Part shown: in pieces, positions 7,046-64,000 of the stretch | How positions within the stretch are numbered: the stretch's first letter is position 1 | Layout: the number at the start of each line of letters is the position of its first letter | Source: Elusimicrobiota bacterium | GTDB taxonomy: Bacteria; Elusimicrobiota; Elusimicrobia; UBA1565; UBA9628 | Length of the DNA stretch: 64,000 bases | Assembly: GCA_016209035.1 (NCBI GenBank) | Contig: JACQWX010000029.1 | Coordinates: 1,676-65,675, forward strand | Direction of reading: 5' to 3' | Notes under the pieces: generated by a model | Seen by the model: the letters and a program-made list of their open reading frames with translations, nothing else | Database searches by the model: none | What the model was told of the DNA's origin: nothing | Translations under genes and position numbers: made by a program

Positions 7046-7741
7046 ATGGTCCGCCAGCGGGTTCTCGCGGTCGATGACGACGAGGAGATGCTGCGGTTCT
7101 ACCGCTGCTTCTTCGGCAAGCTCCATCCGGAGGAATTCTCGGGCGCCGTCGCGGCCGACGGGCGCGAGGCCCTGGGGCTGCTCTCCCGCGAGCGCCTGGA
7201 CCTCGCGGTCCTCGATTGGATGCTGCCCGACATCTCGGGCCTCAACCTCCTCAAGGCCATCCGCTCCCATCCGAGGACCCGGTCGGTCGGGGTCATCATG
7301 GTCACGGCCCTCGCCTCGCCGAACGACGTGGTGACGGCCCTCGAGACCGGGGCCGACGACCACCTGGCCAAGCCGTTCGACGAGGCCGTGTTGTTGGCGC
7401 GGCTGCGCAGCCTGGGCCGCAGGCAGAGTCCCGACTCCGGGCGGCGCAGGTTCCTCGTGTTCGGGGACCTGCGGCTGGACCTCGAGGCCGAGCGCCTCAC
7501 CGTAGAGGGCGTCGCCGTCCACCTCACGCCCAAGGAGGTCGACCTGCTCGGCATCTTCATGGCGCGGCCCAACATCCTGCACACGCTCTCGGCCATTTGG
7601 GACGCGGTCTGGAACCATGAATCCGAGCATTGGCAGCACATCCTGGCCGCGACCATCTCTTCCTTGCGGCGCAAGCTCGGGCCCAGCTGGGGGCCGCGCC
7701 TGAAGTCCCGCAAGGGCAGGGGCTATCTCTTCGGCGACTGA
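7046..7741 (+). CDS. OmpR-family response regulator (REC + winged-helix Trans_reg_C)
   Basis: The receiver has VLAVDDDEEM and the phospho-acceptor region LAVLDWMLPDISG. The winged helix has LTPKEVDLLGIFMARPNILHT. An alternative start at 7025 is possible. Confidence 0.8.
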   Translation: MVRQRVLAVDDDEEMLRFYRCFFGKLHPEEFSGAVAADGREALGLLSRERLDLAVLDWMLPDISGLNLLKAIRSHPRTRSVGVIMVTALASPNDVVTALETGADDHLAKPFDEAVLLARLRSLGRRQSPDSGRRRFLVFGDLRLDLEAERLTVEGVAVHLTPKEVDLLGIFMARPNILHTLSAIWDAVWNHESEHWQHILAATISSLRRKLGPSWGPRLKSRKGRGYLFGD

Positions 7742-11377: not shown

Positions 11378-11446
11378 CGCAAGATTATTTTTTCTTAATA
11401 CGAGAGACCCCGCAGCGACCGTTTTTTGGTAAAATGCTTCTTTCAG

Positions 11447-12268
11447 ATGACGCGAACCTGCGTTGTCCTGTCGTCTTTTATCCTGCTGGCTTCGGTCCCG
11501 ACCAGGGCGCTTGAGCTCTCCCTGGAGGAGAACCGGGCGCAGCGCGGCTCCGTCGGCTACGTCGACATGGGCAGGGTCTTCAAGCTCAACCCCGAGACCT
11601 TCCGGGCCAAGGAGTCCTTCGAGGACGCCGTCCGCCAGGCCGAGGAGGGCGTCAACATCCGCAAGGCCGAGGTCATGCGCCTGCGCAGCGAGCTCGCCGC
11701 GCTCAAGGCGGAACGCGAAGTGCTGGCCAAGGCGGCGGCCGAAGCGGCGGCCGCGCAGGCCCGATTGGAGGCCGCGGCGCAGGCCGCCGACGCCCTTCCC
11801 GAAGGCGACCGCGACGCTCGGCCTCCGGCCTCGACCGCGGCGCAGGCGGCCATCGCCTCGACCCAGGTGCCTGGCTCCACCTTCACCGCGCCCGCGCCGA
11901 CTCTCCCCGCCGCCTCGGTCCCGGCAGCAGCGGCGGGGGTTCCGGAACCGCCGCCGCCCCCCTCCCCGAAGACCCCGTCGCCTCAGGAGACCGCGCTGGC
12001 GGACGTGGACGCCAAGATCGAGAAGAAAGCGGCGGAGTTGACGCAGAAGGAGTCGGAGTTCAAGAACCTCCAGGCGATGGCGGAAAAGAACCTCCTGGAC
12101 CTCGAGAGCCGCAAGACGGAGATCCTCCTGGGCAAGATCCACAAGGCCATCATGGACGTCGCCCGCAAGGAGGGCGTCAGCGTTGTGGTGGACAAGAACA
12201 GCATCCTCTACGGCCACGAGGCCGTGGATCTCACGGAGAAGGTCCTCCAGGCCCTGAGGGGCGGATGA
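11447..12268 (+). CDS. OmpH/Skp-family periplasmic chaperone with Ala/Pro-rich low-complexity insert
   Basis: It has a signal peptide and coiled-coil Ala/Glu-rich segments. The conserved Skp C-terminus reads LGKIHKAIMDVARKEGVSVVVDKNSILYG, and the gene sits immediately upstream of lpxD as in the classic skp-lpxD-fabZ-lpxA arrangement. Confidence 0.65.
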   Translation: MTRTCVVLSSFILLASVPTRALELSLEENRAQRGSVGYVDMGRVFKLNPETFRAKESFEDAVRQAEEGVNIRKAEVMRLRSELAALKAEREVLAKAAAEAAAAQARLEAAAQAADALPEGDRDARPPASTAAQAAIASTQVPGSTFTAPAPTLPAASVPAAAAGVPEPPPPPSPKTPSPQETALADVDAKIEKKAAELTQKESEFKNLQAMAEKNLLDLESRKTEILLGKIHKAIMDVARKEGVSVVVDKNSILYGHEAVDLTEKVLQALRGG

Positions 12269-31900: not shown

Positions 31901-34900
31901 TGGCCGCCTTCACTTCCGCCTTCAGCCTGACCGAGGGCATCCGGCTCGTGAGCTTCCAGAGCCAGGACAACGTGGAGAACCTTGAGCTTCTCAAGAATTC
32001 CACGGTCTACGTGGACGCCACCGCGCCCGCGACGGCCTTGGCCATCGGAGGCCCGAGCTTCGACCCAGGAGAGGGCCGGCCCGTGTTCGTGGCCTTGAAG
32101 ACCATGCTTGGTTTGCCTTCCATCGATCCTGAGGTCTTGGGCGCGGCCTCAGGCGTGCGGGAAGCGAGGTTCCGACTGGATTCGGGCGCTTTCCAGATCT
32201 TCGCCGCGCGGTTCACGGTCCCTCTTCCTGAGGGACCGCACCAGATCGAGTGGTTCGGTACGGACAACGTGGGCAACGCCGAGGTCCTCAAGTCTACGGC
32301 CATAGCCTTGGACGACACTGCTCCCTTGACCAGCCTGGCTGTCCTGGCAGGCCGGCAAGCGCGCGCGCCGGAGCCTGAAAGCTTCTTTGCCTCTTCGGAT
32401 ACGGCCTTGGCCTTCGTATCCACCGACCCTGCGGCAGGCTGGCCGGCCTCGGGCCTGGGCTTGACCGAGTTCCAGGACAATGCCGGCCCGTTCGAGGCTT
32501 TCAGCGCGGCATTCAGCCTTACTGAAGGCGTCCACAGGCTCGGCTACCGAAGCCGAGATCGGGTGGACAACCTCGAGGTCCTGGCTAGCACGACCGTCTT
32601 GGTTGACGCGACCCCGCCTGTCTCGATCCTTGCCATCGGCACGCCCCAGGCCAAGGTGGTCCCCGGGCAGGGTCATGGCCCCATGGGGCTGACCATTGTT
32701 TCCAGCATCGCGCCTTTGGTCGTCATTTCCACGGACCCGGTTTCCCGGGAAGTCAACTCCGGGCTGGAGCAAGTCCATGTGAGCACAGGTTTTGGTTTCT
32801 CCACCTCGACCGCTGCTTTCAGGCTTGACGGGGTTGACGGGATCAAGACGGTATCCTTCTACGCCTTCGACCGGGTGGGCAACACGGAGGCTTTCCAGAC
32901 GGGCGAGGTCGGGTTGGACAATACCGCGCCTCTGACTTCACTCGCGTATGTGGGCGGGCGCCAGTTCAGGACTCAGGACAAGGTCTTTGCGTCCACCACC
33001 ACCGCCTACCGGTTCGACGCGGGCGATCCTGTGGCGGGCGGGATAGCTGCCGGGGTGGACTTCACGGAATTCTCGATCGACTCCGGCCCGCTTTCCAGGT
33101 TCGCGTTCGACTTCACGCTCGCAGAAGGCGTTCGGACGATTGCATGGCGCTCGCAGGACCGCGTCGCGAACCTGGAGACCCTGGTCTCGACAGCGGTGCA
33201 TGCGGACGCGACTCCTCCCATATCGTCCACGACCCTCACGGGCCCAAGGTTCCTGTCCGCGGGCCAGGCCGGCACGGTCGGCGGGCCGCTATTCATCGCG
33301 TCTTCCACCCTGGTGGGTTTGAGGTCCGAGGATCCGATGTCGAACGGGGTTGCCTCAGGCTTGAACCGGATCATGGCAGCCTTGGACGGCGGGACCACGA
33401 GCGTCTTCTGGTTGGACTCCCCCATTGTCGCTGAGGGCACCCACACCCTCGTCTACCAGGGGTTCGACAACGTTGAGAACGCCGAGACTTCCAGGGTGTT
33501 CAAGGTGAGTGTGGACTCGACCCCGCCGGTGACCGATATCTCATTCCTGGGTGTCGCATCCTTCCTGCCCGGCCTGCCTGAGCAGGCCCGTGTCTTCATC
33601 GCATCCGGCACCAGGGTCGCGCTCGCGGCACAAGACCCCGTGTCGCGGAACACAGCCTCCGGCGTGCTTCTCACCCGCTACCGGATCGGCCAAGGCCTGG
33701 GAGGCCACCCTGGCCCTTGGACCGCAACCCAAGGTCCCTTCTTGCTGCCAGGTGAGGGCCTGCATCTGGTCGAATGGCAGTCCCAAGACAAAGTCGAGAA
33801 CCTTGAACAGGCCAAGGTCATGCTCATCGCGGTGGACCAGACCCCGCCCGAGACCTCGGTCAGCTTCGGCGAACCCGGATTCAGGGGCTTCGGCTTCGAC
33901 CTCATAGCGTCCGACACGCCCATAACCCTCACCAGTCAGGACCCATTGTCGAGCGGCGTGGCATCGGGAGCCGCGGAGATCACATACCGGGCTGACGGCG
34001 GTCCGCTCCAGGTCTACGTCAGTTCCTTCACGCTTCCCCAGGGCATGCACACCCTGGAGTACGGAGCCGTAGACCGCGCGCAAAACGCCGAGACGCGCAA
34101 GACCGTAGGCGTGGCGGTGGCGGACTTCGTGCTGGGAGCCGTTGCGGGGGTGGACGGGATTTCCGGCTCCGGGACCTCGGACATCACAGGGCTGGTGCAG
34201 TCCAATGGCAACGTGGACCTCTCGGGGAACGTGGCGGTTGTAGGGGACGTCACGGCCTATTCCGTGACCCTGAAGGGCCAGGCAACGGTTTCCGGCAATA
34301 TCATCCAGGGGGCCTCCCCGCTCGTGGCCGAGTCGATCGACCTGGCGCTGATTGAGCAGTTGGCCCAGGCTTCAAGCTCGAACATCCTCATTCCTGAGAG
34401 CTTCCTCAAGAACGGGGCGCTGAGCATAAGCGGTCAGAAGACCTTGACGCTCAGCACGGGCGTCTATGTGGTGGAGGGTCTTGAGATAAACGGCGGCGCA
34501 AGCCTTAGAACACAGGGCCCCGTGAGCCTGCTGGTGCGCGGGCCCGTGAAGGTCGAGGGAGGCGGAGCCTTGAACGCGGACGGACGAGCCTCCCAGTTCG
34601 TGGTATTCTCCAATGGGAGCCAAGGCGCGTTCTTCGGAGGCGGGGCCCGGGTTCTGGGACTCTTCTATGCGCCTCACGCGGCGCTGCTCATCGCGGGCAA
34701 CAGCCAGATCGGAGGGCACCTGTTTGGAAAGACTGTGGCCTTGAGCGGCACCTCCAACATCGTCCAGTCCGGAGAAACCCTGCCTCAGCTGGTTGCAAGC
34801 TCGGGAGGGAAAGACAAGAAGCTCTCCTTGGCCAGAACGGCCATGGCAGGCTTGGGCCCCGATCCCGCCTTCCGCTATCACGACCACTATGCCTTCCCCA

Positions 34901-35181
34901 ATCCCTCGAGGGGGACAAATCCTACAATACGGGTGCAGGTGGGCATGGCGGACTCGGTTCAGGTGCAGATTTACGACGCAGCCGGGAGCATGGTACATAA
35001 CGACTTCTTCGGGGTTCCAAGGGTCCTTGACGACAGCAACGGCAAGGGCGACCAGTACACTTACGACTATGTCTGGAACGTGGGCCGCATGGGCTCCGGA
35101 GTCTACATCTACGTCATCACCGCGACCAAGGCCGGTGAGAAGCCCATCCGGAAGACCGGAAAAGCAGGAGTGATCCGCTGA
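22984..35181 (+). CDS. Giant (4065 aa) T9SS-type secreted cargo: N-terminal novel domain, FN3s, two NHL six-bladed beta-propellers, ~17-19 tandem Ig-like (HYR/Big-like) repeats, DUF3494 ice-binding-like beta-helix, C-terminal Por/T9SS sorting domain
   Basis: The signal peptide is MRICMPGGWLRLWRALILASAVIPSWQG. NHL blades include DQEGNVYAADSGNARIQKFNPAGGFL and GNVLVADRSLNVIHLFSSTGALV. FN3 units include LSWTAPGEDGGTGQAASYELRYS. Periodic D-x-T-P/A-P-x-T ... SGV ... YRSxDxVGNxE units recur every ~300 nt. The beta-helix segment reads TLSTGVYVVEGLEINGGASLRTQGPVSLLVRGPVKVEGGGAL. The CTD reads YAFPNPSRGTNPTIRVQV...VQIYDAAGSMV...SGVYIYVITATKAG. Confidence 0.85.
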   Translation: MRICMPGGWLRLWRALILASAVIPSWQGLLSAQDETVCAVVKLEIKQEATLEREAFDARLLLNNNSTTQPLQNLFVNFTITDIDGNPADILFFVKISSLSNTNAIDGTGVVQSSSTADIHWLIIPSTGAGGSNPLGLRYAIRANISYTANGIPQLLSTFDAFITVKPQPSTKLEYVLPYEVFSDEPLTVEIEPIEPFPLGVRVTNVGYGTARNFQIDSAQPRIVENKQGLAVDFKLLGTVVAGNTIPDTLLVPFGDVAPGGVGQASWIMSTTLSGRFIEFTSTFTHAAELGGALTSLIQSVTTYTLLKDVLVDLPGRDRVPDFLVNMGQPRGEGMQALLDSGGTIAAEYILESDQPTPIQVTEVPAAVSGTLAGTNASLTLSFAQPVGSNVWAHSSVPVVLPAGVSLVFVTRSDGKALNPANGWISKHFRKSDRSVLRRLNVIDLTSSATAYVFNFSAAGLEQAPGAVADLAAATGQRGGELALSWTAPGEDGQTGAILGGRYLIQHEVDQSASFAPAAALVVFATSTAPGRIERYVLTGAIGNTTNYLRLWTQDTGGAMSGISNGATAYALPNPPAQSAFVAVSSEALGVSWVIGNNSLPIEYQVVVNTDLAEPFVSSSPFFGSFQNSFTFAGLAPNTAYTLFGFARNPETGARSEMAVLGSTTTLATPPVAQPFADLSTNSLTAAWAIGSNPAGTEYWVELSTLPERAPVIAQSGWIRAGSFTFSGLASATTYYARAKARNLGLVETGFTDLGAAWTSSADNMPPRTGLVVGLPRFGAAPVFVTDKTTFSFTVADDLETVGDGAGLGAAYTMVSVDTAPFFNFAAAFSLVEPGMHTIRYYSVDYLNNVETERQAAVVVDAIAPATSLEVLGSSRVVGGMIELFEGSNITLTASDPEPVGVGSGVGRTIFLIDTAPENCIGGAPAWPPDPSFPQGSCRNPVFTAPFALSKGTHTVLYYSVDHVGNTEVPGSIALSVSRPPGDITETGRVDFRFSFGGQGSAPGQFNFMSDVSVDQEGNVYAADSGNARIQKFNPAGGFLLAWGSYGSGPGQFSGLWAINVCAGFAEQRVVAVDNPNRRVQIFTSTGGLLGQIGPGIGGSTFTLSYPVGVACDGAGHVYIGDQGLRLILKTDQTGRLLGSWSIPEGGIGRIAVDMSGMVYVSVGRAVFKFTADGTLLQRFGDPNSTLGNLSRSQGMAFDIFNNLYVGDSCTGGQGVQVFAPSGTFLAKFGEPGTAPGQFLSYVVQGVGIDRWTGRIFATDTSENRVEVFDVAVPTTDIKAPLTKLLVLGPSGATGDGNLIVTTTTLLSFESVDSAHPGIAPSGVAFTEYRLDETGPFQRFTTPFALEFVVAGFPYRGIEYRSTDHAGNVEPARLVHVYLDFTPPRSALFFDENQVTQMFGPESIALPGDLAFPETEFTIVAHDPGNPFSAGVGTVTAALDGMPVELERKPETSPCPEPLHGWDCVRLDVPGQERPLAEGLHLLTWQSGDKTGNFDIPRTVSFNVVRRPPNVVNNPAHKFLTALQSPEPDGFFGLTDLAVDFFGNVYVANLGPYKATIWRFSSDGALLQQFPIDAQGMDVGVSPVRLAINPTLDRKLLVTAGYHVGFYTTEGSVQYFPSTFGGFSFVNASDAAFDSAGNIYVADSAQGKIFKFSPSLEFIMAFGERGGGQFVTGPGRLASDRNGHIFATDTNPGRILKFSSAGEFIGSISGPMAEPDGLSTDIYGNVLVADRSLNVIHLFSSTGALVGQIGSPGSGQGQLASPRGLDIHLQRGRVYVADRANQRVQIFAPDLLPDTVMNLHATATMEGEVLLSWTAPGEDGGTGQAASYELRYSTMPITNISEYLEASTVTTPSPGPAGSTETLRIAGLAGNTSFYFALRAFDSAGNPSALSNTAVVRTPFIVRSAAMINGNPELLMIASNIEPAVVLIDTTSSAGGFVLAAASSQTLELASNLYDVGPPGAEFSPLASLTLRYSTKTLADLGLAEAQLGIYRFHPPADLVKVPGQTLDMQGRFLRVPIGRVTSIFGIFGPIPDRTPPLTSLRVIGGGRFVDTEARLLVSSDAALGFDAFDPVVRGTASGVAFTEFRVDAAAATAPYSVFVSTFGLAEGGHLIEFRSQDHAGNLEVTRSSQVFVDAVAPATSLLVNGTAVGAAEAVIISTDILSFASQDAGSGVSETLFKIDEMPEQVYASTFTLAAGTHTVTFRSRDNVGNVESLKTALVSSLAPDTTAPSLAFVPVDGSTLATSRPTIAALYSDEGRGIDLTSVRLALDGLDVTSQAVVTTSSGSFVPAASLAQGSHTINASVTDMAGNLAAAAATFMLDVTPPSVVIESPNGGEVYLAGASTIQVRFGVTDNVDPAPGFYASLVQLEDRGSPRGNRPGFVPATTGQTFDPLDLDDGLWRLKVSAADFVMNSTAHYSGAFEVIHDTLAPRTLMTISAPQAPGGPGGAEFVSSRTMINLSSVDDLVLAGDGQGLGVAWQALSVDGIFRTTFTNLSPASRQVFSSSFTLATEPDGIHALAFFGQDVVGHVEALGSKAVALDDTPPLTGLVLSTPSFNGFVSSRTLLTLVAEDPVAGGVASGVEFTSYRIGGGDFVRMPLSLSLAGPDGAYVLEFQSRDRVENLEVLHSTTVLLDQTPPETTLSLEGPVSGDFVTSQATVALVSHDPGTLPSGAALTRYKINDGAFVIGSPLSQFGLSGSDGNYRIQYQSEDHVANLEVLLERVLKLDNTPPKTEAVIQDTVFFGVDGSTYASHAAGLGLIAVDAGSEVERTEAAVDGEPFEPYSAPLTLAEGVHVVRYRSVDKLGNVETERSLSLKVDGTPPTTTAQVGEPSFMDAQGKHYVTPATAVSFSALDPGLAFSTVPGSGLSLIEVAMDTGPFSAFTRSLTFTEGRHTVFFRAVDRVGNVEVIRTLSLRSDATPPITAMKPSGEFFTAGARDFAPGHFTYSLPAEDPAAKDVASGVAWTRFGLDHGPLAAFTSAFSLTEGIRLVSFQSQDNVENLELLKNSTVYVDATAPATALAIGGPSFDPGEGRPVFVALKTMLGLPSIDPEVLGAASGVREARFRLDSGAFQIFAARFTVPLPEGPHQIEWFGTDNVGNAEVLKSTAIALDDTAPLTSLAVLAGRQARAPEPESFFASSDTALAFVSTDPAAGWPASGLGLTEFQDNAGPFEAFSAAFSLTEGVHRLGYRSRDRVDNLEVLASTTVLVDATPPVSILAIGTPQAKVVPGQGHGPMGLTIVSSIAPLVVISTDPVSREVNSGLEQVHVSTGFGFSTSTAAFRLDGVDGIKTVSFYAFDRVGNTEAFQTGEVGLDNTAPLTSLAYVGGRQFRTQDKVFASTTTAYRFDAGDPVAGGIAAGVDFTEFSIDSGPLSRFAFDFTLAEGVRTIAWRSQDRVANLETLVSTAVHADATPPISSTTLTGPRFLSAGQAGTVGGPLFIASSTLVGLRSEDPMSNGVASGLNRIMAALDGGTTSVFWLDSPIVAEGTHTLVYQGFDNVENAETSRVFKVSVDSTPPVTDISFLGVASFLPGLPEQARVFIASGTRVALAAQDPVSRNTASGVLLTRYRIGQGLGGHPGPWTATQGPFLLPGEGLHLVEWQSQDKVENLEQAKVMLIAVDQTPPETSVSFGEPGFRGFGFDLIASDTPITLTSQDPLSSGVASGAAEITYRADGGPLQVYVSSFTLPQGMHTLEYGAVDRAQNAETRKTVGVAVADFVLGAVAGVDGISGSGTSDITGLVQSNGNVDLSGNVAVVGDVTAYSVTLKGQATVSGNIIQGASPLVAESIDLALIEQLAQASSSNILIPESFLKNGALSISGQKTLTLSTGVYVVEGLEINGGASLRTQGPVSLLVRGPVKVEGGGALNADGRASQFVVFSNGSQGAFFGGGARVLGLFYAPHAALLIAGNSQIGGHLFGKTVALSGTSNIVQSGETLPQLVASSGGKDKKLSLARTAMAGLGPDPAFRYHDHYAFPNPSRGTNPTIRVQVGMADSVQVQIYDAAGSMVHNDFFGVPRVLDDSNGKGDQYTYDYVWNVGRMGSGVYIYVITATKAGEKPIRKTGKAGVIR
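29080..34110 (+). repeat. Intragenic tandem array of ~17-19 diverged ~300-nt (100-aa) Ig-like repeat units inside the giant-2 gene
   Basis: Unit boundaries are marked by DxTPPxT/DxTAPxT at ~29080, 29390, 29660, 29950, 30260, 30600, 30880, 31160, 31430, 31730, 32010, 32310, 32610, 32920, 33200, 33510 and 33830. Each unit shares SGV.., Y..DGG.F and (Y)RS.D.VGN.E motifs. Further isolated units occur at ~25560 and ~27120. Confidence 0.7.
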
Positions 35182-36197
35182 TGAAAGTCATCCATCCGTC
35201 GCGCCCCCTGCCGCCCACGCCTTTCCTGACGGCGCAGGGGACCTGGCCCTCCAATCTCCTGGAAGGCCAGGGCCTCCGGCCTGGACCGCGCCTTGCGCTC
35301 GTGGCCGTGGCGCTCGTGGTCGCGTGCTTGCCCGCCCGGGCCGGCGAGACCGCCCAGTTCTTGAAGATAGGGGTGGGAGCCCGTGCAGTAGGAATGGGAG
35401 GCGCCTACACCGCGGCAGGTGATGACTTGAACTCCATGGCCTGGAACCCCGGGGGCATGGCGAGCCTGACCAAGCGCGAAGCGGGCGCCATGTACGCCAA
35501 CTTGGTGGCTGAGACGCACTACAGCTTCATGGGCTACGGCCAGCCGACGAAGTACGGCACTTTCGGGGCTGGGATCATGTACCTGGGCCAAGGCTCGCTG
35601 GATGGCAGGGATTCCCAGGGCAGGGCCAATGGTGGATTCACGGCCTCGGACATGGCATTGGGCGTATCGTACGCCAAGACGGTGCTCCCGAGGCTGGGCT
35701 TAGGCGTCAACGTCAAGTTAGTCAGGACGAACGTCGGCTCGGACACGGGCTATTCCGTTGCTTTCGACCTGGGCTCAAGGTACGACCTGGGCAGGATGGG
35801 GCCAGGGAGCTTGGCGGCTGGGTTGGCGGTGTTGAACCTTGGGCCCGGCATCAGGCTGCACGAGCAAAGCTCGGACTTGCCGTTGGTGTTGGCGACCGGA
35901 CTTGGGTACAATCTTCCTTTCGGCTTGAACTTCGGGCTGGACTTCAGGAACAGGCCCTATGCCGGAAGCTCGGAGGTGAGCCTTGGGACTGAGCTTGCGG
36001 TGGTTCCCCAGTTGGCCTTGAGGATGGGGTATGCTTCGACTCATGGGCTCATCTCAGGGGCGTACAAGACGAGCGACTTGATGGGGCTGGCTGCCGGGTT
36101 CGGGGTGAAGGCCTACGGGATGAGCCTGGATTACTCCATGACGCCCTTTGGGGGGCTGGGGAACAGCCACAGGATTAGTCTAGGGAGCAGATTTTAG
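35181..36197 (+). CDS. PorV/PorQ-family-like outer-membrane beta-barrel protein (putative T9SS cargo shuttle); ATG shares a nucleotide with giant-2 stop
   Basis: It has a hydrophobic signal-like segment and the N-terminal motif [31 protein letters not shown], typical of the PorV/UPF0164-type barrel family. The rest is an alternating Gly/aromatic beta-strand pattern with a C-terminal Phe. The family assignment is made from memory of the motif and has not been searched. Confidence 0.55.
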
Positions 36198-51291: not shown

Positions 51292-52649
51292 ACGCCCTGC
51301 TGCTGTCTCTTCCTTTAATAGTCGCTTCCCCGGGCTCGGCCCTTGGCCGCGCCCAGGCCGCTCCAGAGCTCCGGGCGACCCTGGCCGAAGCCGTCGCCTC
51401 CGCGGAGGCGGATTCCCCGGCTCTGCGCTCCGCGCAGGCCGAATGGAAGGCCGCGGTCAGCCGCAGCGAGAGCCGCTGGAGCGGCCGTTGGCCTGAGCTG
51501 ACGGCCGAATCCTCCTATAAGTTCGCCGGCGAGGTCCCCTCGCTCTCCGTCATCCCGGGCCGCACCCAGTCCCTGGGCGACCATCACAACTACTCCCTGG
51601 GCCCCTCCCTGAGCTGGACGCTCTGGGACCAGGGCGCCCGGCGCGACGCCTGGCTGGCCGCCGTTTCCGCGGCGCGCGCCCGGGCAGAGGACGTCGATGC
51701 CCAGCGCAGGCAGGCGCGCTTGAAGACGCGGCTCGCCTATTTCCAGGCCCAGCTCGCGCTCGAACAAGTCCGGCTCCTGGCGGATTCGCTCAAGCTCGCG
51801 CAGTCGCAGTACGGCGACATCGAGAAGCGCCGTCAAGCCGGGGCATCGAGCCGCCTGGACTCGCTCTCGGCCCATCAGGAGGTGCTCGCTCGGCTGCGGC
51901 AGTTCCGTCAGGCCAGGTCCGACCTCGCGGCCGCTCTGCGCGACCTCTACGCATTGACCGGGAAAGAGCCTTCCGAGGACCTCTCCCTCCCTCTCGACGG
52001 CAGGACCGCGCCCCTGCCCGAGGACGTCGAGCCCGCCAGCGTCTTGATCGCGCTCGACCCCCTCGAGGATTCGCTGAAGTCCTTGGCCGCGGTCGAGGCC
52101 GGGGCCCTCGACGCGGGCCACCCGGGCGTCGCGGCCCTGCGGGAGTCGGCGCGGTCCTACAAGCTCTCCGCCGGCGGGACCCGCGCGGGGCTCTGGCCGA
52201 GGCTGGGATTCACCGGCCGCACCAGCCTCGAATATCCCAACGGCCCCGTCCTGGAAGCCTTCCATCAGAACACGGTCGGGGTCTTCGCCAGCATGCCCCT
52301 CTTCGAGTTCGGCCGCACCCGCCGGGAAGCGGCCTCCTTCGAACGCCAGGCAGAAGCCGCGGACGAGCGCGCCGAGGCCGCGCGGCGCGACCTCGCCCGC
52401 GATTGGCGCAAAGCCAAGGACCAGCTCCTCGGCCTCAAGGCGCAGAAGACGCTCTGCCTCCAGGCCGTGTCCGAAGCGCGGGAGGCGGCGGACCTCACCT
52501 ACGAATCCTACAAGGCGGGACGGGTCACCTTCATCGAGGTGCAGTCCGCCAACCTGCGCGAGATCGAGGCCCGAGTCCAGGCGGCCCGCATCGATGCCCA
52601 AGCCCTCATGCAGCTCGCCTCCCTGGCGAGCCTCGCGGAGAAGGAGTGA
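51288..52649 (+). CDS. TolC-family outer-membrane efflux protein
   Basis: A signal peptide is followed by two repeats of the OEP coiled-coil/beta pattern, with an Ala/Leu/Gln-rich heptad-like sequence and SLEYPNGPVLEAFHQNTVGVFASMPLF beta segments. The ATG overlaps the tetR stop (ATGA). Confidence 0.75.
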   Translation: MNALLLSLPLIVASPGSALGRAQAAPELRATLAEAVASAEADSPALRSAQAEWKAAVSRSESRWSGRWPELTAESSYKFAGEVPSLSVIPGRTQSLGDHHNYSLGPSLSWTLWDQGARRDAWLAAVSAARARAEDVDAQRRQARLKTRLAYFQAQLALEQVRLLADSLKLAQSQYGDIEKRRQAGASSRLDSLSAHQEVLARLRQFRQARSDLAAALRDLYALTGKEPSEDLSLPLDGRTAPLPEDVEPASVLIALDPLEDSLKSLAAVEAGALDAGHPGVAALRESARSYKLSAGGTRAGLWPRLGFTGRTSLEYPNGPVLEAFHQNTVGVFASMPLFEFGRTRREAASFERQAEAADERAEAARRDLARDWRKAKDQLLGLKAQKTLCLQAVSEAREAADLTYESYKAGRVTFIEVQSANLREIEARVQAARIDAQALMQLASLASLAEKE

Positions 52650-54908: not shown

Positions 54909-55361
54909 ATGTTCAGGAGCTCGAGTTCCCCCAGCTCGTACCACAACCCCATCCGCCTGCGCCGCGCCTTCGGCGAGGAGAGGCAGGCCAAGCGGGTGTA
55001 CGAGCGCTTCTCCTGCGACCTGCGGGTCGCGGTGTGGTCCTATGACGCCAGGACCCGGGTCGGGGTTGGGCGCCTGCGCAACCTCAGCATGGGCGGAGCG
55101 TTCCTCGAGTGCGTCATGGGGCTCGAGAAGGGAGCCCTCTACCACTTCCAGATCGCCCGCGGCAACATCCCCATCGTCGTGGCCGGCCATGTCGCCCGCG
55201 TGATCCGCGTCGGGAGCATCCGCTCCAACCAGTACGGCATCTCCTTCACCCTGGGCGCCAAGCAGCAGAACCTGCTCAAGGCGATCATCGACCCCATGCG
55301 CGCCCGGGCCGCCAAGCCCGCCGTCGACGACGAGAAGGTGAAGTGGTACTGGGGCATGTGA
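54909..55361 (+). CDS. PilZ-domain protein (putative c-di-GMP receptor)
   Basis: The RxxxR motif (RRAFGEERQAKRVYER) and the D/NxSxxG motif (LRNLSMGGAFL) are present at PilZ-typical spacing. Confidence 0.6.
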   Translation: MFRSSSSPSSYHNPIRLRRAFGEERQAKRVYERFSCDLRVAVWSYDARTRVGVGRLRNLSMGGAFLECVMGLEKGALYHFQIARGNIPIVVAGHVARVIRVGSIRSNQYGISFTLGAKQQNLLKAIIDPMRARAAKPAVDDEKVKWYWGM

Positions 55362-58300
55362 CCAAGAAGACGGCCGCCGACAACGGCAGACGCGACGAGC
55401 TCGTCGAACTGCTGCGGACCCGCATCCTGGTGCTCGACGGCGCCATGGGCACCGAGATCCAGGCCAGGAACCCCGCGGCCGCGGATTTCGGCGGCCCCGA
55501 GTTCGAGGGCTGCACCGACCATCTGTCCCTCACCAAGAAGGACGTCATCGCTTCCATCCACGACGCCTACCTCCAGGCCGGCGCGGACATCATCGAGACC
55601 AACTCCTTCGGCGCGGTCCCCTGGGTGCTCGAGGAATACGGGCTCGCGGCCAAGGCCTCCGAGATCAACCGGGCGGCGGTGGAACTGGCGCTCAAAGCCG
55701 CCAAGAAGCACTCGACCCCCAAGAAACCCCGGTTCGTGGCGGGCGCCATGGGGCCGGGCACCAAATCCATCTCGGTGACGGGCGGCATCTCCTACGACGA
55801 GGCGCGCTGCGGCGCGGCCGGCTGGGCGTTCGACCTCGTGGACGCCGGGTGCGACATCCTCCTCATCGAGACCCAGCAGGACACCCTGAACCTCAAGGCG
55901 TCCCTGGCGGGCGTCGACGACTCCTTCCAGCGGCTCGGCCGCAGCGTCCCGGTCATGGTGTCCGTCTCCATCGAGAACTCGGGCAAGATGCTCGGGGGCC
56001 AGTCCATCGACGCCCTCTACGCCTCCCTCCAGCACCGGGACCTCCTCGCCCTGGGGATGAACTGCGCCACGGGCGCCGACTTCATGACGGACCATTTGCG
56101 CACGCTCTCCGCCTTGAGCCGCTTCCCCACGCTGTGCTACCCCAACGCGGGCCTGCCAGACGAGCGCGGCAAGTACTCCGAGACCCCCGCCCTGCTGGCC
56201 AAATCCATCGAGCGGTTCTGCTCCCAGGGTTGGGTCAACCTGGTGGGCGGCTGTTGCGGCACGACCCCGGCCCACATCAGGCTGGTCGCGGCCATGGCCG
56301 CGGGCGTCCCTCCCCGCCGGCCCAGCCGCAAGAGGGTGTCCCTGGTCTCGGGCCAGGAGGCCCTCGTGATCGAGGGCCGCAACCGGCCCGTCCTGGTCGG
56401 GGAGCGCGCCAACGTCCTGGGCTCCAAGGCGTTCAAGGAGCTCGTCGTCAAAGGCGCCTTCGAGGAGGCGGCGGAAACCGGGCGTCGCCAGGTCAAGTCC
56501 GGCGCGCAGATCCTCGATGTCTGCCTCTCCAACCCGGAGCGCGACGAGATTCTCGACATGACCGCGTTCCTGGGTCACCTCCTCAAGAAGGTCCGGCTGC
56601 CCATCATGATCGACTCCACCGACCCCGCGGTCGTGGAGGCGGCGCTCAAGCTCTGCCCCGGCAAGTGCATCATCAACTCGGTCAACCTCGAAGACGGGGC
56701 GGGCGAGCCCGGCCAGGCGGCCGAGCTCGCCCGCCGGCACGGCGCGGCCTTGGTCGTGGGCGCCATCGACGAGGACAAGGCGGCCGGCATGGCCGTCACG
56801 CGCGAGCGCAAGGTCGCCATATGCCAGCGGGCGCACGACATCCTCGTGAAGAAGCACGGCATGGCCCCCGAGGACCTCTACTTCGACGGCCTGGTCTTCC
56901 CCGCCGCCTCCGGGGACAAGGGATATTATGGCTGCGCGATGGAAACGATCGAAGGAATCAGGCTGATCAAGAAGGCGCTGCCAAGGTCCAAGACCATCCT
57001 GGGGATCTCGAACGTTTCTTTCGGCCTGCCGGGGGCAGGCCGAGAAGTGCTCAACGCCGTCTTCCTCTATCACTGCGTGCAGGCGGGACTCGACCTAGCC
57101 ATCGTGAACACCGAGAAACTCGCGCGCTACTCCACCCTGGGCGAGGCTGACCGCAAGCAAGCCTTGGCCCTCCTGTCCTGGAAGGGCCCCGGCGACCCCG
57201 CGCATCCCGCGGGCTTCGACCCGCTCTCCGAGTTCGCGGCGCGGTTCAAGGCAGTCCGGGCGGTTGCCGGCGGCGCCCGGCCGGAGGAGGGCCCCTCCGG
57301 CGCCCCCCTCACGCCCGAGGAACGCCTCGCGCGCCGCGTCGTCGAAGGCTCGAAGGAGGGGCTCCGCGAAACCATCACGGAGCTGCTCTCGACCCTCAGG
57401 CCCCTCGAGCTCGTCAATGGCCCGCTCATGAAGGGCATGGCAGAGGTCGGCCGGCGCTTCGCGGCCAACGAGCTCATCGTGGCCGAGGTCCTCCAGTCCG
57501 CCGAGGTCATGAAGGCGGCCGTCGAGCTCCTCGAGCCCCATATGGACCGCTCCGAGTCCGCCAGCCGCGGGAAGATCGTGCTGGCCACGGTCAAAGGCGA
57601 CGTGCACGAGATCGGCAAGAACCTGGTGCACATCATCCTCAAGAACAACGGCTTCGAGGTCGTGGATCTCGGCATCAAAGTCCCTCCCGAATCCCTCGTG
57701 GAGGCCGTCAAGAAGCACCGGCCGGACGCGGTCGGCCTTTCGGGCCTGCTGGTCAAGTCCGCCGAGCAGATGGCGACGACGGCCGAAGACCTGGCGCACG
57801 CCGGCATCGGCGTCCCCCTGCTCATCGGGGGCGCCGCGCTCTCTGCGAAGTTCGCCTCCACGAAGATCGCGCCCCGCTACAAGGGCCCGGTCCTTTACGC
57901 GCGGGACGCCATGAAGGGGCTCGACCTGATGAACGCGCTCTCGGACCCGGCCAAGCGCGAGAAGCTCCTTGCCGCGGCCCGCACCCCGGGCTCCGCTGAC
58001 CGAGCCCCGGCGGCCAGCGCCATCCCCGAAGGGCCGCCGGGACGCTCGGGCTCCGCCCTCGACCGCGCCCCGGCGGCCGACATCCCGGTCCCGCCGGACC
58101 TCAACGTCCACCTGGCGTCGGACGTCTCCATCGAACAGGTCTTCCCCTACATCAACCCGGTGATGCTCTACGGCAAGCACCTGGGCCTCAAGAGCGTGGA
58201 GAAGTCGTTCGCCGGGGGCGAGCCCAAGGCCGCGGAACTCCGGGCCAAGGTCGAAGCCGTGCGGGCCGAGATCGCGGCCAAGGGCCTCATCAAGCCCCGC

Positions 58301-58906
58301 GGGGTGTACCGGTTCTTCGCGTGCAATTCGGACGGCGACTCGATCCTGCTCTACGAGAACGCCACGGGCCGCAAGGTCGTCGAGACCTTCGCCTTCCCCA
58401 GGCAGGCCGGGCCCGAGAGGCTCTGCATCGCCGACTGGGTCGCCCCCAAGTCCGGCGGCAGGATGGACTACGCGGCTCTTTTCGCCGTCACAACCGGCCA
58501 CGGCGTCTCGGCCCTCGCGGAGAAGCGCGTGAAGGCCGGGGACTACTTGAGATCGCACATCATCCAGGCGCTGGCCATCGAGAGCGCCGAGGCCTTCGCG
58601 GAACTCCTCCACGAGAGGCTGCGCGCCATCTGGGGCATCGCCGACGCTCCCGGCATGACCCTGCGCGAGAAGTTCCAGGCCAAGTATCGGGGCCTGAGGG
58701 TGAGCTTCGGCTATCCCGCCTGTCCCGACATCTCGGACCAGAAGAAGCTCTTCGCGCTCCTCGATCCCGCCCGGCACGCGGGCATCGCCCTGACCGAAGG
58801 CTGCATGATGGACCCAGAGGCGAGCGTCTCCGCCCTCGTCTTCCACCACCCCGCGGCCAAGTATTTCTCCGCCGGACCCCAAGAGGCCTCGGCCGTAGGA
58901 GGCTGA
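55358..58906 (+). CDS. metH: Cobalamin-dependent methionine synthase MetH (all four modules; low-complexity insert near B12/AdoMet junction)
   Basis: The Hcy-binding barrel has ILVLDGAMGTEIQ...CYPNAGLP...GGCCGTTP. The pterin-binding module follows. The B12-binding module has VKGDVHEIGKNLVHIIL with the DxHxxG motif, then GLSGLL. The AdoMet reactivation domain has FPRQAG...RLRAIWGI...FGYPACPD. The GTG start at 55358 overlaps the PilZ stop. Confidence 0.9.
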   Translation: MTKKTAADNGRRDELVELLRTRILVLDGAMGTEIQARNPAAADFGGPEFEGCTDHLSLTKKDVIASIHDAYLQAGADIIETNSFGAVPWVLEEYGLAAKASEINRAAVELALKAAKKHSTPKKPRFVAGAMGPGTKSISVTGGISYDEARCGAAGWAFDLVDAGCDILLIETQQDTLNLKASLAGVDDSFQRLGRSVPVMVSVSIENSGKMLGGQSIDALYASLQHRDLLALGMNCATGADFMTDHLRTLSALSRFPTLCYPNAGLPDERGKYSETPALLAKSIERFCSQGWVNLVGGCCGTTPAHIRLVAAMAAGVPPRRPSRKRVSLVSGQEALVIEGRNRPVLVGERANVLGSKAFKELVVKGAFEEAAETGRRQVKSGAQILDVCLSNPERDEILDMTAFLGHLLKKVRLPIMIDSTDPAVVEAALKLCPGKCIINSVNLEDGAGEPGQAAELARRHGAALVVGAIDEDKAAGMAVTRERKVAICQRAHDILVKKHGMAPEDLYFDGLVFPAASGDKGYYGCAMETIEGIRLIKKALPRSKTILGISNVSFGLPGAGREVLNAVFLYHCVQAGLDLAIVNTEKLARYSTLGEADRKQALALLSWKGPGDPAHPAGFDPLSEFAARFKAVRAVAGGARPEEGPSGAPLTPEERLARRVVEGSKEGLRETITELLSTLRPLELVNGPLMKGMAEVGRRFAANELIVAEVLQSAEVMKAAVELLEPHMDRSESASRGKIVLATVKGDVHEIGKNLVHIILKNNGFEVVDLGIKVPPESLVEAVKKHRPDAVGLSGLLVKSAEQMATTAEDLAHAGIGVPLLIGGAALSAKFASTKIAPRYKGPVLYARDAMKGLDLMNALSDPAKREKLLAAARTPGSADRAPAASAIPEGPPGRSGSALDRAPAADIPVPPDLNVHLASDVSIEQVFPYINPVMLYGKHLGLKSVEKSFAGGEPKAAELRAKVEAVRAEIAAKGLIKPRGVYRFFACNSDGDSILLYENATGRKVVETFAFPRQAGPERLCIADWVAPKSGGRMDYAALFAVTTGHGVSALAEKRVKAGDYLRSHIIQALAIESAEAFAELLHERLRAIWGIADAPGMTLREKFQAKYRGLRVSFGYPACPDISDQKKLFALLDPARHAGIALTEGCMMDPEASVSALVFHHPAAKYFSAGPQEASAVGG

Positions 58907-61549: not shown

Positions 61550-62959
61550 ATGAGATCCCCCGCCGAGATTCTCATCGTCCTCCTCTGCGCGCCCGCGCTT
61601 TCATGGGCGTCGGCGGACGCGCCGTTCGACGGCGGCGGCAAGCCTTTCGAGATCGATCTCGGCAGGATGACGACCGCCTCCCGCTCTCTTGCGGCCGAGG
61701 TGGACGACCGGCTCTGGGTGACCGCGCTCGCGCCCGACAAGCGCAGCCGCACGCTCGCCTCCGAAGCGGGGTTCGCCATCGAGGAGATCCGCGGCGGCGC
61801 CATCATGGGCGTGGCGCTCCCCGAGACCGTGGACGCCCTCAAAGCCGCGGGCATCGAGGTCCTCGCGGCCGTCCCGCTCCTCAAGCAGTTTAACGCCAAG
61901 GACTTCCCCAAGGAGGACGGCGCCTACCACAACTACGCGGAGGCGGCTGCGCTCCTCAACGAGCTCGCGGCTGCCGCCCCCAAGCTCGCATCCGCCTTCT
62001 CGATCGGCAAGAGCCTGCTCGGCCGGGACATCCCCGCCTTGCGCCTCAATTCCAGCGCCAGGGGACCTGCGCCCAGCTCCAAGCCGGGCATCGTGTTCCT
62101 GGGCACCCACCATGCCCGGGAGCACCTCTCGACCGAGATCCCCCTTCTCCTGGCCAAGCACCTGGTCGACAACCGCGACAAGCCCGACATCGCGGCCCTG
62201 CTCGAGTCCCGCGACATCTTCGTCATCCCGCTGGTCAACCCCGACGGCTCGGAGTACGACATCGAGGGCGACCGCTACCACATGCACCGCAAGAACATGC
62301 GCGCCAACTCCGACAAGTCCGTGGGCGTGGACTTGAACCGCAACTACGGCTTCCACTGGTGCGAGAGCGGCGCCTCCTCCAACCCCAGGTCCGACACCTA
62401 CTGCGGGACCGCGGCCTTCTCCGAGCCCGAGACCGCGGCCGTCAAGGCCTTCCTCGAGGCCCGGACCAACGTCAAGATACTGCTCACCTACCACACCTTC
62501 AGCGAGCTCATCCTTTACCCGTGGGGCCACACGGAAAGCCCCATCCCCGACGCGCCGGCCCTGGCCGCCTACAAGAGCATGGCAGACGCCATGGCCAAGA
62601 TGAACGGCTACACGCCCCAGCAGTCGAGCGACCTCTACGTCGCCTCGGGAGACACGACCGATTGGGCCTGGGCCGTCCGCGGGATATTCTCCTTCACCTT
62701 CGAGCTTTCCCCCAAGTCCCTCTGGGACGGCGGCTTCTACCCGGGCGTCCCGGCCATCGCCACGACCTTCGCGGCCAACCTGCGGCCCGCCCTCTACCTC
62801 ATCGGCCTCGCCGACGACCCCCTGCGCGCCCCGGCCGCCGACGCCATTTCCGAGAGGCGGCCGGGACGATCGGGCTCCGCCCTCGACCGCGCCCCGAGCG
62901 TTTCCGGCGACGGGGTCGCGGGCGAGGACCGGCCGGTCGCCGCCTTCGGCAGCCGCTGA
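61550..62959 (+). CDS. M14-family zinc carboxypeptidase, secreted, with ~45-aa Pro/Ala-rich C-terminal extension
   Basis: It has a signal peptide. The zinc-binding block is FLGTHHAREHLSTE (HxxE). LVNPDGSEYD, NRNYGFHW and TYHTFSELILYPWG are M14 hallmarks. Confidence 0.8.
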   Translation: MRSPAEILIVLLCAPALSWASADAPFDGGGKPFEIDLGRMTTASRSLAAEVDDRLWVTALAPDKRSRTLASEAGFAIEEIRGGAIMGVALPETVDALKAAGIEVLAAVPLLKQFNAKDFPKEDGAYHNYAEAAALLNELAAAAPKLASAFSIGKSLLGRDIPALRLNSSARGPAPSSKPGIVFLGTHHAREHLSTEIPLLLAKHLVDNRDKPDIAALLESRDIFVIPLVNPDGSEYDIEGDRYHMHRKNMRANSDKSVGVDLNRNYGFHWCESGASSNPRSDTYCGTAAFSEPETAAVKAFLEARTNVKILLTYHTFSELILYPWGHTESPIPDAPALAAYKSMADAMAKMNGYTPQQSSDLYVASGDTTDWAWAVRGIFSFTFELSPKSLWDGGFYPGVPAIATTFAANLRPALYLIGLADDPLRAPAADAISERRPGRSGSALDRAPSVSGDGVAGEDRPVAAFGSR

Positions 62960-63084: not shown

Positions 63085-64000
63085 AATGGTCTTTAATCCC
63101 TTCGTGACCGTGCGATCCCTCCTTCTGCGTTCCCTCCTGTGCGGCCTCTGCGCCGCCGTCCCGCCTGCCGTCTGTCCTGCGCAGGGACGCTCGCCCTCGG
63201 GCCTCGACTTCGCCGCGCCGGCCAAGCGGCTCGTCAAGGAGTGCCGCAACGCGATCTCCCGGTCCGAGTCAGCGCTGGCGGCCGTGCTCAGCGTGTCGGA
63301 GGGGAGCCCGGATTTCACCAACACTCCGGAGGCCGTGGAGAACACCCTGGCCGACTGCCGCGAGGCTACGGCCGCGCTCTCTTTCTTGAGGTTCGTCTCG
63401 ACCACGAGCGCGGTCCGCGACGCGGCCCTCGCCTGCGATCGAGCGCTCCGACAGTTCGAAGAGCGAACCTTCTCCCGGGCCGACCTCCATGCCGCGGTCC
63501 TGCGCTACACGGACCTCAAGGCGCCCCTGGCGGGAGAGCCCGAGCTCCTGGTGGAGACCCAGCTCAAGGACTTCAAGGCCGGCGGCGCGGCGTTGAGACC
63601 GGGCGACCGCGAGAGCCTGACGCGCTTGAGGACCCAGATCGCGGACCTCGAAACCTCCTTCATGGAGAACATCGCGGCCGCCGACGCCGCGGACCACCTT
63701 GATGTCTCGACCGACGAACTCGCGGGGCTGCCCGCGGAGTTCCTGGAGGGCCTGCCTGCGGAGCAGGGACGCCGCCGAGTGGGGGTGTCCCTCGACCAGT
63801 ACTCCCCGGTCATGACGCTCGCGAGGGCCCCTTCGACCCGTCGGTTCCTCGCCACCCTGCGCGAGAGCCGGGCCAAGGAGAACCTCCCGGTCCTCGACCG
63901 CCTGCTGACCCTGCGCAGGGAGGAGGCCGGGCTCCTCGGCTACCCGTCCTTCTCCCATCTCATGCTCGAGGGCCGCATGCTCGGCAATCCCCTGGCGGTC
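63085..64000 (+). CDS. M3-family oligopeptidase (Dcp/OpdA/thimet-like), N-terminal 305 codons; continues beyond window
   Basis: The open frame from ATG 63085 to the window end has no stop. It has a signal-like N-terminus and M3 N-terminal helical-domain features (FLRFVSTTSAVRDAALACDRALRQFEE, LLTLRREEAGLLGYPSFSHLMLEGRMLGNP). It was not reported by the ORF track, which lists an Arg-rich alternate frame instead. Confidence 0.7.

Follow-up and report, generated by a model that had tools for sequence, protein, structure and literature searches.

The match between metH and the carboxypeptidase gene

Why should metH (55364..58906, + strand; 100% identical to the 1153-aa NCBI protein P0001) and the gene of a secreted M14 carboxypeptidase (61550..62959, +; 469 aa, orthologues 446–447 aa) hold a stretch of almost the same DNA? 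In the window, by which we mean the whole stretch of 64,000 nucleotides analysed here, a sequence-only reading had matched 58013..58072 to 62837..62896 with 52 of 60 positions identical, and recomputation returned the same 52/60 without gaps. The single difference described within the 3' 37 nt was also recovered, whilst the core itself, CCGGGACG[C/A]TCGGGCTCCGCCCTCGACCGCGCCCCG, measured 36 nt: it occurs exactly twice in the window, the two occurrences differing by one base, and gave a mean of 0.00 matches in 100 dinucleotide-preserving shuffles. Both copies are in frame and, as the translations confirm, encode the peptide AAxAIxExxPGRSGSALDRAP.

The match is part of something larger than the pair of 60-nt copies first reported. 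Using nhmmer, four solid copies were identified in the window (11773-11844, 35199-35294, 58006-58072 and 62829-62901, all on the + strand) together with two weak matches (63182-63214 and 52432-52461), and the unit proved to be 63 nt long, reaching ~10–15 nt further on the 5' side and being accompanied by flanking direct repeats. Including both of these repeats, the metH copy spans 57998..58079 (+) and comprises one 63-nt unit at ~58005-58067; it is read in frame +2 as PAASAIPEGPPGRSGSALDRAP within the linker between the B12-binding and activation domains, and its direct repeats occupy 57998-58016 (left) and 58061-58079 (right, both +), with the sequence GACCG[A/C]GCCCCGGCGGCC at 57998-58015 and 58061-58078. 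The M14 copy occupies 62825..62905 (+; core 62865-62891), with direct repeats CGCGCCCCG at 62825-62833 and 62888-62896 (+). A third copy was found in the gene of a Skp/OmpH chaperone (ORF 11426-12268) at 11772..11851 (+; core 11813-11839), where it is read in frame +0 (ADALPEGDRDARPPASTAAQ) between the direct repeats CCGCGGCGCAGGC[C/G]GCC at 11772-11788 and 11835-11851 (+). The fourth, at 35200..35290 (+; nhmmer E = 2e-6), is a long variant of 87 nt whose core encloses an additional nested hairpin, CTGGCC(C)TCC-n8-GGA(A)GGCCAG; it lies where a porin-like ORF (35181-36197) is annotated to begin and may belong to a 5'-UTR or be intergenic. Of the weak matches, 63182..63214 (+; E = 0.014) is a partial core match in the N-terminal part of an M3 peptidase gene and may be a decayed copy.

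Counting the core beyond the window brought the number of exact matches to 60, with 57 in six other Elusimicrobia MAG assemblies and the rest in the window, although part of the core's invariance in this main sample follows from the pattern used in the search. Metagenome loci contributed nine more core matches in eight loci; viral contigs searched for the element gave zero copies, and ~54 kb from the two closest relatives gave no matches. Such repeats have two practical side effects: they break assemblies, with copies sitting at contig ends in L001, L022, L025 and L037, and they produce spurious "shared motifs" between unrelated proteins.

Anatomy of the unit

The unit is ~80% G+C and consists of a 10-bp hairpin (H1; stem of ~10 bp, all G/C, with a loop of 15–16 nt), an adjoining GACG and a conserved 27-nt core that includes a 4-bp mini-hairpin (H2). 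In the metH copy, H1 extends over 58006..58041 (+), with its 5' arm CCCGGCGGCC(A) at 58006-58016, a 15-nt loop and its 3' arm GGCCGCCGGG at 58032-58041 (+); the core GACGCTCGGGCTCCGCCCTCGACCGCG follows at 58041..58067 (+), within which H2 (GGGC-TCC-GCCC) lies at 58048-58058 (+). The corresponding H1 arms of the M14 copy are found at 62830-62839 and 62856-62865 (+). GACG on the + strand is CGTC on the minus strand, which therefore reads CGTC and then the H1 stem; Three of the four copies in the window have GACG; in the wider sample the search pattern required it, and its invariance there is hence not independent. Tandem copies are strictly head-to-tail with a spacing of exactly 63 nt, and the long variants measure 87 nt (63+24): in those of L028, L030 and L040, the H1 3' arm beside GACG has given way to another perfect hairpin.

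Alignment of the copies shows that they belong to one family and that the predicted hairpin covaries: judged from sequence, the H1 arms vary between subfamilies yet remain complementary. Across 52 copies, 84% of the H1 cells are paired and 65 cells carry double changes, where shuffles gave 25.5 (0/500); the stem occurs in no fewer than six fully complementary haplotypes, and the metH and M14 arms themselves differ by a compensatory G/C swap. For the whole structure, the 88.7% of cells that are paired fall to 30–54% when the partner is slid, and at the middle pair of H2 four of the five variant copies are compensatory (CG:47, GC:2, UA:2, other:1). We placed the weight on covariation because the folding energies of single copies (z from -1.3 to +0.5) are no better than those of shuffles in such G+C-rich sequence. 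Against the Rfam 15 covariance models, the window yielded nothing at the gathering threshold, and a sensitive search around the metH copy yielded nothing at E <= 1.

The flanking direct repeats are copy-specific, ~3–20 nt long and present around most copies, and the 5' and 3' repeats of a given copy agree at 7.56 of 12 positions, compared to 6.03 +/- 0.17 against the repeats of other copies. The only inverted repeat is the internal H1. Integron attC, CRISPR and DGR were dropped upon sequence inspection, which showed neither R'/R'' core sites nor adenine-specific variation, and tandem units that match even in the "variable" part.

Insertion relative to orthologues

Comparison with orthologues shows the element as extra sequence in M14, Skp and M3 peptidase genes, and the alignments indicate insertion. 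In the M14 gene the insertion could be delimited to 62840..62905 (+), 66 nt or 22 aa (DAISERRPGRSGSALDRAPSVS), which is missing from the two closest orthologues (L051 and L052): these read ...LRAPAA|GDAVAG..., while the window reads ...LRAPAA[22 aa]GDGVAG, and their empty site already holds CGCGCCCCC. The Skp orthologues P0122 and P0123 (loci L061 and L063) are ~63 nt shorter at the element site, and a Peptidase_M3 protein carries, within its domain, 21 aa that orthologues lack. The native PPPSTAA of the Skp orthologues was considered as a decayed older copy, for which nhmmer gives no support. The orthologue pair L034 and L047 was too diverged for a clean empty site.

In the case of MetH, alignment of 19 Elusimicrobia sequences gave a different picture: the linker is hypervariable and of similar length in 19/19, with the element peptide in none. 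Since the metH linker is no longer than that of the orthologues, a net insertion is not demonstrable there, and its DNA is too diverged from that of L051 and L052 to delimit one. The proposal that Pro/Ala-rich extensions of both proteins are absent from orthologues hence stands for the 22 extra residues of M14 and falls for MetH, where the linker itself is ancestral and only the element peptide is missing. The idea of a short mobile or copy-pasted DNA behind the match, on the other hand, gained from the comparison: the core recurs at 57 further sites, and the closest M14, Skp and MetH orthologues lack the element, so that the match is neither restricted to two sites nor explained by a peptide that orthologues share.

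Location in genes and reading frames

Inside called ORFs lie 53 of 70 copies (76%; coding fraction of the element loci 0.90); the remaining ones are intergenic (12) or at ORF edges (5). The intragenic copies are 25 in sense and 28 in antisense to the host gene and are read as AVEAGGRAS (26), DARPPASTA (17) or GRSASGLDRA (7). They have passed a strong frame filter: 50 of the 53 fall into three of the six frames, on both strands (p = 5.5e-12), and the reading frame is identical on both sides of the copies. The earlier placement in linker regions was too narrow, as copies also occupy N- and C-termini, with one inside a Peptidase_M3 domain. Since host genes read the unit in three different frames and from either strand, the repetition is, on the evidence of these readings, one of DNA and not of protein. 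We judge the ~21 extra residues that each copy adds to linkers, termini and loops to be a harmless selfish passenger and not a functional peptide.

Orientation and GC skew

The copies are co-oriented: non-tandem copies in one locus share their orientation in 11 of 11 pairs (window and genome loci), and six of seven multi-locus contigs have uniform element orientation. This orientation follows GC skew. In 41 of 51 loci the C-rich element strand coincides with the C-rich strand of the genome (9 G-rich, 1 zero; p = 3e-6, with loci that are short, at 8 kb, and several of which share a contig), and a gene-independent skew component of ~-0.033 persists after splitting sense and antisense genes; in the window, GC skew is negative throughout. 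Translating this into replication polarity assumes that in the Elusimicrobia phylum the G-rich strand is the leading strand.

Origin of the copies

Taken together, the copies probably represent a dispersed, non-autonomous selfish repeat family of some high-GC groundwater Elusimicrobia with a 63-nt unit and 87-nt variants. A new copy would add about one period (63–66 nt in the three cases measured) at a landing site that would already resemble the unit junction (GAC)CGCG-CCC(C/G)GGCC, and the junction sequence would end up on both sides as the copy-specific direct repeat of 3–20 nt. Intragenic copies would survive because their length is a multiple of three, because the consensus is free of stops in all six frames and because the peptides encoded in three of the six are flexible and rich in Ala, Pro, Gly and Ser. 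Against current mobility we weighed that the copies are 80–90% alike and that no presence/absence polymorphism was seen.

As for the copying step itself, we tentatively suggest a route through single-stranded DNA at the replication fork, catalysed in trans, where the enzyme could be of the HUH/Y1 type (RAYT or IS200-like) or another structure-specific enzyme recognising the CGTC-tagged hairpin. The variable length of the direct repeats differs from the predictions for IS200/IS605 or RAYT, and microhomology-driven copying fits it at least equally well. Neither a transposase nor any other candidate enzyme linked to the element was found at the loci examined: the neighbours of intergenic copies are housekeeping genes without transposase domains, tblastn with the L051 protein detected no Y1_Tnp homologue in ~0.45 Mb of element-containing loci, and no cognate autonomous IS with common ends turned up among the 58 loci that pattern scans retrieved. 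The only Y1_Tnp gene seen, that of L051, is an unrelated AT-rich insertion located between a HEAT-repeat gene and a CTP-transferase-like gene; it has AT-rich flanks with its own 21-bp inverted repeats and was rejected as the mobilising enzyme, with no element copies nearby and no counterpart in the window.

A far more speculative extension, by analogy to the pairing of guide and cleavage site in IS200/IS605 or to bridge-RNA, would make the variable 3' arm of H1 a guide that pairs with the genomic target, so that the element would programme its own target choice. Two observations hint in this direction, namely that the 5' flank, the internal arm and the 3' flank covary and that the single G/C difference between the otherwise nearly identical metH and M14 copies agrees with what the orthologues natively have at the corresponding empty sites. 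If such guiding were true, the element would be self-targeting and codon-periodic and would write 21-residue modules into proteins.

Copying may also have required no enzyme at all, which we regard as rather unlikely: replication template switching, slippage or homology-facilitated gene conversion would act between junction-like, GC-rich stretches coding for Pro and Ala, with the hairpins merely stalling forks and their stems being perfect through quasi-palindrome correction instead of selection. Such a process would account for direct repeats of 3–20 nt of which one copy pre-exists at empty sites, for arrays that are strictly head-to-tail with a 63-nt period, for a metH linker that did not lengthen and for the lack of a transposase at the loci examined, and the strand bias is likewise expected for hairpins on the lagging-strand template. 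However, it would demand ectopic switching to dozens or hundreds of chromosomal sites on 9–18 nt of homology, and we know of no precedent for ectopic template switching on this scale with so little homology. Furthermore, the conserved GACG tag beside two unrelated hairpins resembles a recognition module, and the family occurs in several diverged genomes while being absent from the ~54 kb of the two closest relatives.

Stem covariation and the strong replichore-like polarity would also suit a cis element in RNA or DNA that the host keeps for its function, be it an mRNA stabiliser, a ribosome pause site, a binding site for gyrase or a nucleoid protein, or a polar motif of the KOPS or Chi type, and such roles have been proposed for REPs (PMC3733652). 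We find this improbable: sense and antisense copies are equally frequent, which leaves no consistent RNA, and the 13 G-T/T-G pairs against 13 A-C/C-A mismatches provide no signal of an RNA strand. The absence of an Rfam match and the unremarkable folding energies point the same way, element positions differ between relatives instead of being conserved, and the known polar motifs, as 8-mers, are much shorter than the 63-nt unit.

That the two copies first reported share both frame and peptide could suggest a conserved peptide module or ancestral linker whose 21 residues have a function, for example as a processing or sorting signal, and yet we hold this to be very improbable given that the same DNA serves in three frames on either strand, with twelve intergenic copies, orthologues that lack the peptide and hosts as different as cytoplasmic MetH and secreted or membrane proteins. 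Chance similarity of two low-complexity, GC-rich coding stretches, which a window of 66% G+C and a region encoding Pro/Ala-rich sequence might favour, can be dismissed practically altogether with matches in 0/100 shuffles and dozens of further copies of the same architecture.

Relation to known repeat families

The selfish repeat family favoured here is closest in behaviour to the RPEs of Rickettsia and to CGTC-tagged REPs, and it lies outside all described families, from which their own descriptions set it apart. RPEs are short non-coding palindromic repeats found in frame in unrelated housekeeping genes (Ogata et al. 2000 Science 290:347, summarised in PMC10969869 and PMC3733652), and they end in CGTC (PMC3733652). 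Both they and the present element add a peptide in frame without destroying the protein, have no known transposase and carry CGTC, which in the element adjoins the hairpin. RPEs, however, are ~100–150 bp long, AT-rich and known from obligate intracellular alpha-proteobacteria, with one conserved peptide per family, whereas the element is 63 nt long, ~80% G+C and at home in free-living groundwater Elusimicrobia, with three frames on both strands, head-to-tail arrays and strand polarity. Judged from composition and length alone, homology to RPE-1 to RPE-10 is unlikely.

With the superfamily of CGTC-tagged REPs (Di Nocera et al. 2013; PMC3733652) the element shares a CGTC tag beside a G+C-rich stem-loop, high copy number, the occurrence of some copies inside ORFs and, at the loci examined, the lack of a dedicated transposase. 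CGTC-1 to CGTC-4 have 8–9-bp stems starting with A/T pairs, loops of 4–5 nt and a CCA tail, and they are mostly extragenic and often inverted dimers (PMC3733652); the element, in contrast, has a 10-bp all-G/C stem, a 15–16-nt loop, no CCA tail and an extra 27-nt module after the hairpin, its arrays are head-to-tail only, and 76% of its copies are intragenic, whereas REPs in general are predominantly extragenic. REPIN-RAYT systems (Bertels and Rainey 2011, PMC3116915; PMC3337134) resemble it in that hairpin repeats persist as intragenomic populations with stems that are kept complementary, and their mobilisation is proposed to proceed via single-stranded DNA by a Y1 HUH transposase. REPINs, on the other hand, are inverted REP doublets with a GTAG tag, located outside genes and accompanied by a single-copy RAYT flanked by REPs, none of which was seen at the loci examined, where neighbouring copies are all in direct orientation.

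The co-orientation of the copies and their link to GC skew recall IS200/IS605 and derived palindrome-associated elements, which depend on hairpins and, in work ascribed to Ton-Hoang et al. 2010 (Cell), are reportedly oriented to the lagging-strand template. IS200/IS605 insert 3' of a fixed 4–5-nt target without duplication, unlike the element with its direct repeats of 3–20 nt and with no TnpA found at the loci examined. Finally, bacterial MITEs such as ERIC, Correia/NEMIS and RUP (reviewed in PMC10969869) are likewise small non-autonomous repeats that are occasionally intragenic with in-frame fusions, but their terminal inverted repeats, target duplications of fixed length, size of 70–300 bp and cognate IS were not found at the loci examined, which makes the label "MITE-like" of the sequence-only reading only loosely apt.

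Significance

This 63-nt hairpin repeat is previously undescribed. The colonisation of genes in frame by selfish palindromic DNA has hitherto passed for essentially a peculiarity of Rickettsia, next to scattered intragenic REPs elsewhere, and the present family extends it to free-living, high-GC, uncultured bacteria with copies that are mostly intragenic and of a codon-tuned length (63 and 87 nt). It provides a second, independent system for studying how proteins tolerate, and perhaps recruit, such inserts, it is a possible marker of replication polarity in MAGs, and it offers a tractable case for asking what mobilises CGTC-type REPs that have no known transposase.

Copies of the repeat and their empty sites

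The sequence-only reading had reported a 60-nt stretch shared between metH and the M14 carboxypeptidase gene, and this was borne out: the two stretches (58013–58072 and 62837–62896, within copies at ~57998–58079 and ~62825–62905) are identical at 52 of 60 positions in the same register, and both are in frame with the peptide AAxAIxExxPGRSGSALDRAP. The window holds two occurrences of the 36-nt core, which differ from each other at one position; 100 dinucleotide-preserving shuffles yielded no match. A sensitive self-search of the window revealed a third copy within the Skp/OmpH gene (11782–11839), and a profile search a fourth, longer copy (35199–35294) plus two weak partial matches; every window copy is carried by the + strand. 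The longest metH ORF begins ~85 codons upstream of the start of the NCBI protein, and this Arg/Pro-rich stretch (55109–55363) is probably untranslated. Two giant ORFs (12270–20921, 2883 aa; 22933–35181, 4082 aa), with many repeated surface-type domains, fill one third of the window and exhibit lower G+C (0.60–0.62) and a GC skew near zero when compared to the rest.

The two closest relatives, JGI Ga0376277 (loci L051, L063) and JACRDQ01 (L052, L061), match the window in gene order, and their MetH is ~77% identical to that of the window; ~54 kb of their sequence display no recognisable copies, versus four in the 64-kb window. M14 orthologues lack exactly the element, which adds 66 nt (22 aa) in the window, and their empty site reads ...CGCGCCCCCGCCGCT/GGAGAC...; Skp orthologues are shorter by ~63 nt at the element site, and the M3 peptidase of locus L046 exhibits a 21-aa insertion compared to its homologues. 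In the case of MetH, the 19 aligned orthologues lack the element peptide, but all of them have a hypervariable linker that is just as long, so that a net insertion is not demonstrable there; the earlier claim that the extension is absent from orthologues fails for metH. At each empty site, the target was already similar to the element junction sequence. The element-free Skp orthologues (L061:3001–3756; L063:3001–3690) contain a native CCTCCGCCGCCCTCGACTGCGGCCGCC (PPPSTAA) resembling the 3' half of the core, either by chance, as a microhomology that drew the insertion in, or because it is left over from an earlier copy.

Anatomy and covariation of the unit

Oriented as in the window, the 63-nt unit reads CCCCGGCCGCC / AACGCCTTTCCCGAG / GGCGGCCGGG / GACGCTCGGCCTCCGGCCTCGACCGCG, with the first and third segments forming a 10-bp hairpin (H1) and the final 27 nt a conserved core that holds a 4-bp mini-hairpin (H2; GGNC-TCC-GN'CC). 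Read on the other strand, H1 comes directly after CGTC. Most single copies are bordered by copy-specific direct repeats of 3–20 nt, comprising (GAC)CGCG and the first 5'-arm bases; a copy's own 5' and 3' repeats match at 7.56 of 12 positions, versus 6.03 ± 0.17 against the repeats of other copies. Long variants measure 87 nt (63+24). In three of these from JACRDT01 (L028, L030, L040), an unrelated perfect 11-bp hairpin substitutes the H1 3' arm in the same place beside GACG, and the H1 5' arm is left without a partner; in the long window copy (35200–35290), the exactly 24 additional nucleotides accompany a different hairpin nested within the core.

Both hairpins are real constraints. In 52 copies, whose stems were unconstrained by the search pattern, 84% of H1 cells are paired and double-change cells number 65, compared to 25.5 in shuffles (0/500 reaching this), whilst sliding the partner by 1–3 columns reduces paired cells of the whole structure from 88.7% to 30–54%. 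The fully complementary 7-bp stems comprise at least six distinct haplotypes, with one further from L055. At the sole free pair of H2, 47 copies have C-G, two (metH and M14) have G-C, two have T-A and one has a mismatch. The 3' flank also covaries with the H1 3' arm; where the flanks differ, this arm complements the 5' flank threefold more often than the 3' flank (68 vs 23). G-T/T-G pairs are as frequent as A-C/C-A mismatches and hence give no pointer to a one-strand RNA; fold energies of single sequences were unremarkable, and an Rfam search returned no matches.

Distribution and location in genes

Scanning one GTDB genome per species with the core as pattern (three positions free) afforded 57 matches at 50 loci, exclusively in Elusimicrobia MAGs: most from NC_groundwater_1679 (JACRDT01), the remainder from JACRNU01, DATLUA01, CAYJXJ01, JBAZSR01 and JAJZCM01. 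A further 8 loci came from the JGI/ENA metagenome collection, and the viral contigs scanned gave no core match. Several loci contain tandem copies spaced by exactly 63 nt. At loci L001, L022, L025 and L037, element arrays occupy the extreme ends of contigs, which suggests that MAG assemblies break at the repeats and that the copy counts are too low; in L001 and L025 the tandem units are identical.

A codon log-odds gene caller, for which the window served as training set, placed 53 of the 70 copies within ORFs, 12 in intergenic DNA and 5 at ORF edges, in loci that are 90% coding. The intragenic copies are antisense (28) or sense (25), and 50 of the 53 are read in three of the six frames (p = 5.5e-12), giving the peptides AVEAGGRAS (26), DARPPASTA (17) and GRSASGLDRA (7). 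Translation of the core in the three avoided frames yields Arg-rich peptides; on inspection, none of the six frames of the consensus contains a stop codon. Host proteins are unrelated (MetH, M14 and M3 peptidases, Skp, a COX2-cytochrome c fusion, a glycosyltransferase, Kelch/TPR giants and others), with copies positioned in linkers and termini and that of L046 within the Peptidase_M3 domain. One ORF (L049:644–2536) combines a complete glycerate kinase domain (aa 5–373), the element (aa 388–412) and TPR repeats (aa 469 onward); here the element may have made one gene out of two or have spanned an intergenic stretch.

Polarity

Non-tandem copies of the same locus are co-oriented in 11/11 pairs (window and genome loci), the metagenome loci agree, and orientation is uniform in 6/7 contigs with several loci. 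With copies masked, the C-rich strand of the element lies on the C-rich genomic strand at 41 of 51 loci (G-rich 9, zero 1; p = 3e-6). GC skew is negative across the whole window, and separating sense from antisense genes gave a gene-independent component of ~-0.033 and a coding-strand component of ~-0.023. In most bacteria the G-rich strand is the leading strand; if this assumption holds here, the CGTC-tagged strand is the lagging-strand template. An intergenic copy (L041:1359–1432) is flanked by rnpA and yidC, a pair usually found beside the replication origin, and could help to anchor the polarity analysis.

Relation to known elements and mode of spread

The behaviour of the element matches that of Rickettsia palindromic elements (RPEs), which are in-frame, palindromic and without transposase (PMC10969869, PMC3733652), and its tag-plus-hairpin module matches the CGTC-tagged REP superfamily, a group that takes in RPEs and likewise lacks a transposase of its own (PMC3733652). 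However, the element does not have the structure that defines any of the four described CGTC families, and its copies are neither mainly extragenic like REPs, nor inverted doublets like REPINs, nor in keeping with the TIR/TSD definition of MITEs. A search of one literature collection found no paper pairing Elusimicrobia with such repeats.

The replichore-like polarity, the hairpin requirement and the conserved tag beside two unrelated hairpins point to a single-strand, fork-associated, structure-specific process, of the kind suggested for REP/RAYT and demonstrated for IS200/IS605; such an enzymatic single-strand copying step is a tentative reading, less likely than not. Template switching or homology-facilitated copying would account equally well for two features, namely the variable direct repeats and the fact that no transposase was found linked to the element. 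Separately, locus L051 of the closest relative, Ga0376277, contains a gene for a 282-aa Y1_Tnp protein (PF01797; 6329–7177, minus strand) between HEAT-repeat and CTP-transferase-like genes, in an AT-rich island with ~21-bp inverted repeats GGTGTCACACCTCAACTTATG / CATAAGTTGAGGTGTGACACC at its flanks (6200–6335, 7170–7260); this insertion is missing at the syntenic site of the window and of L052.

Irrespective of the copying step, the element is quite probably a non-autonomous selfish repeat: new copies would arise by addition of one period where a target offers junction microhomology, and selection would then sieve them for frame, position and a length divisible by 3.
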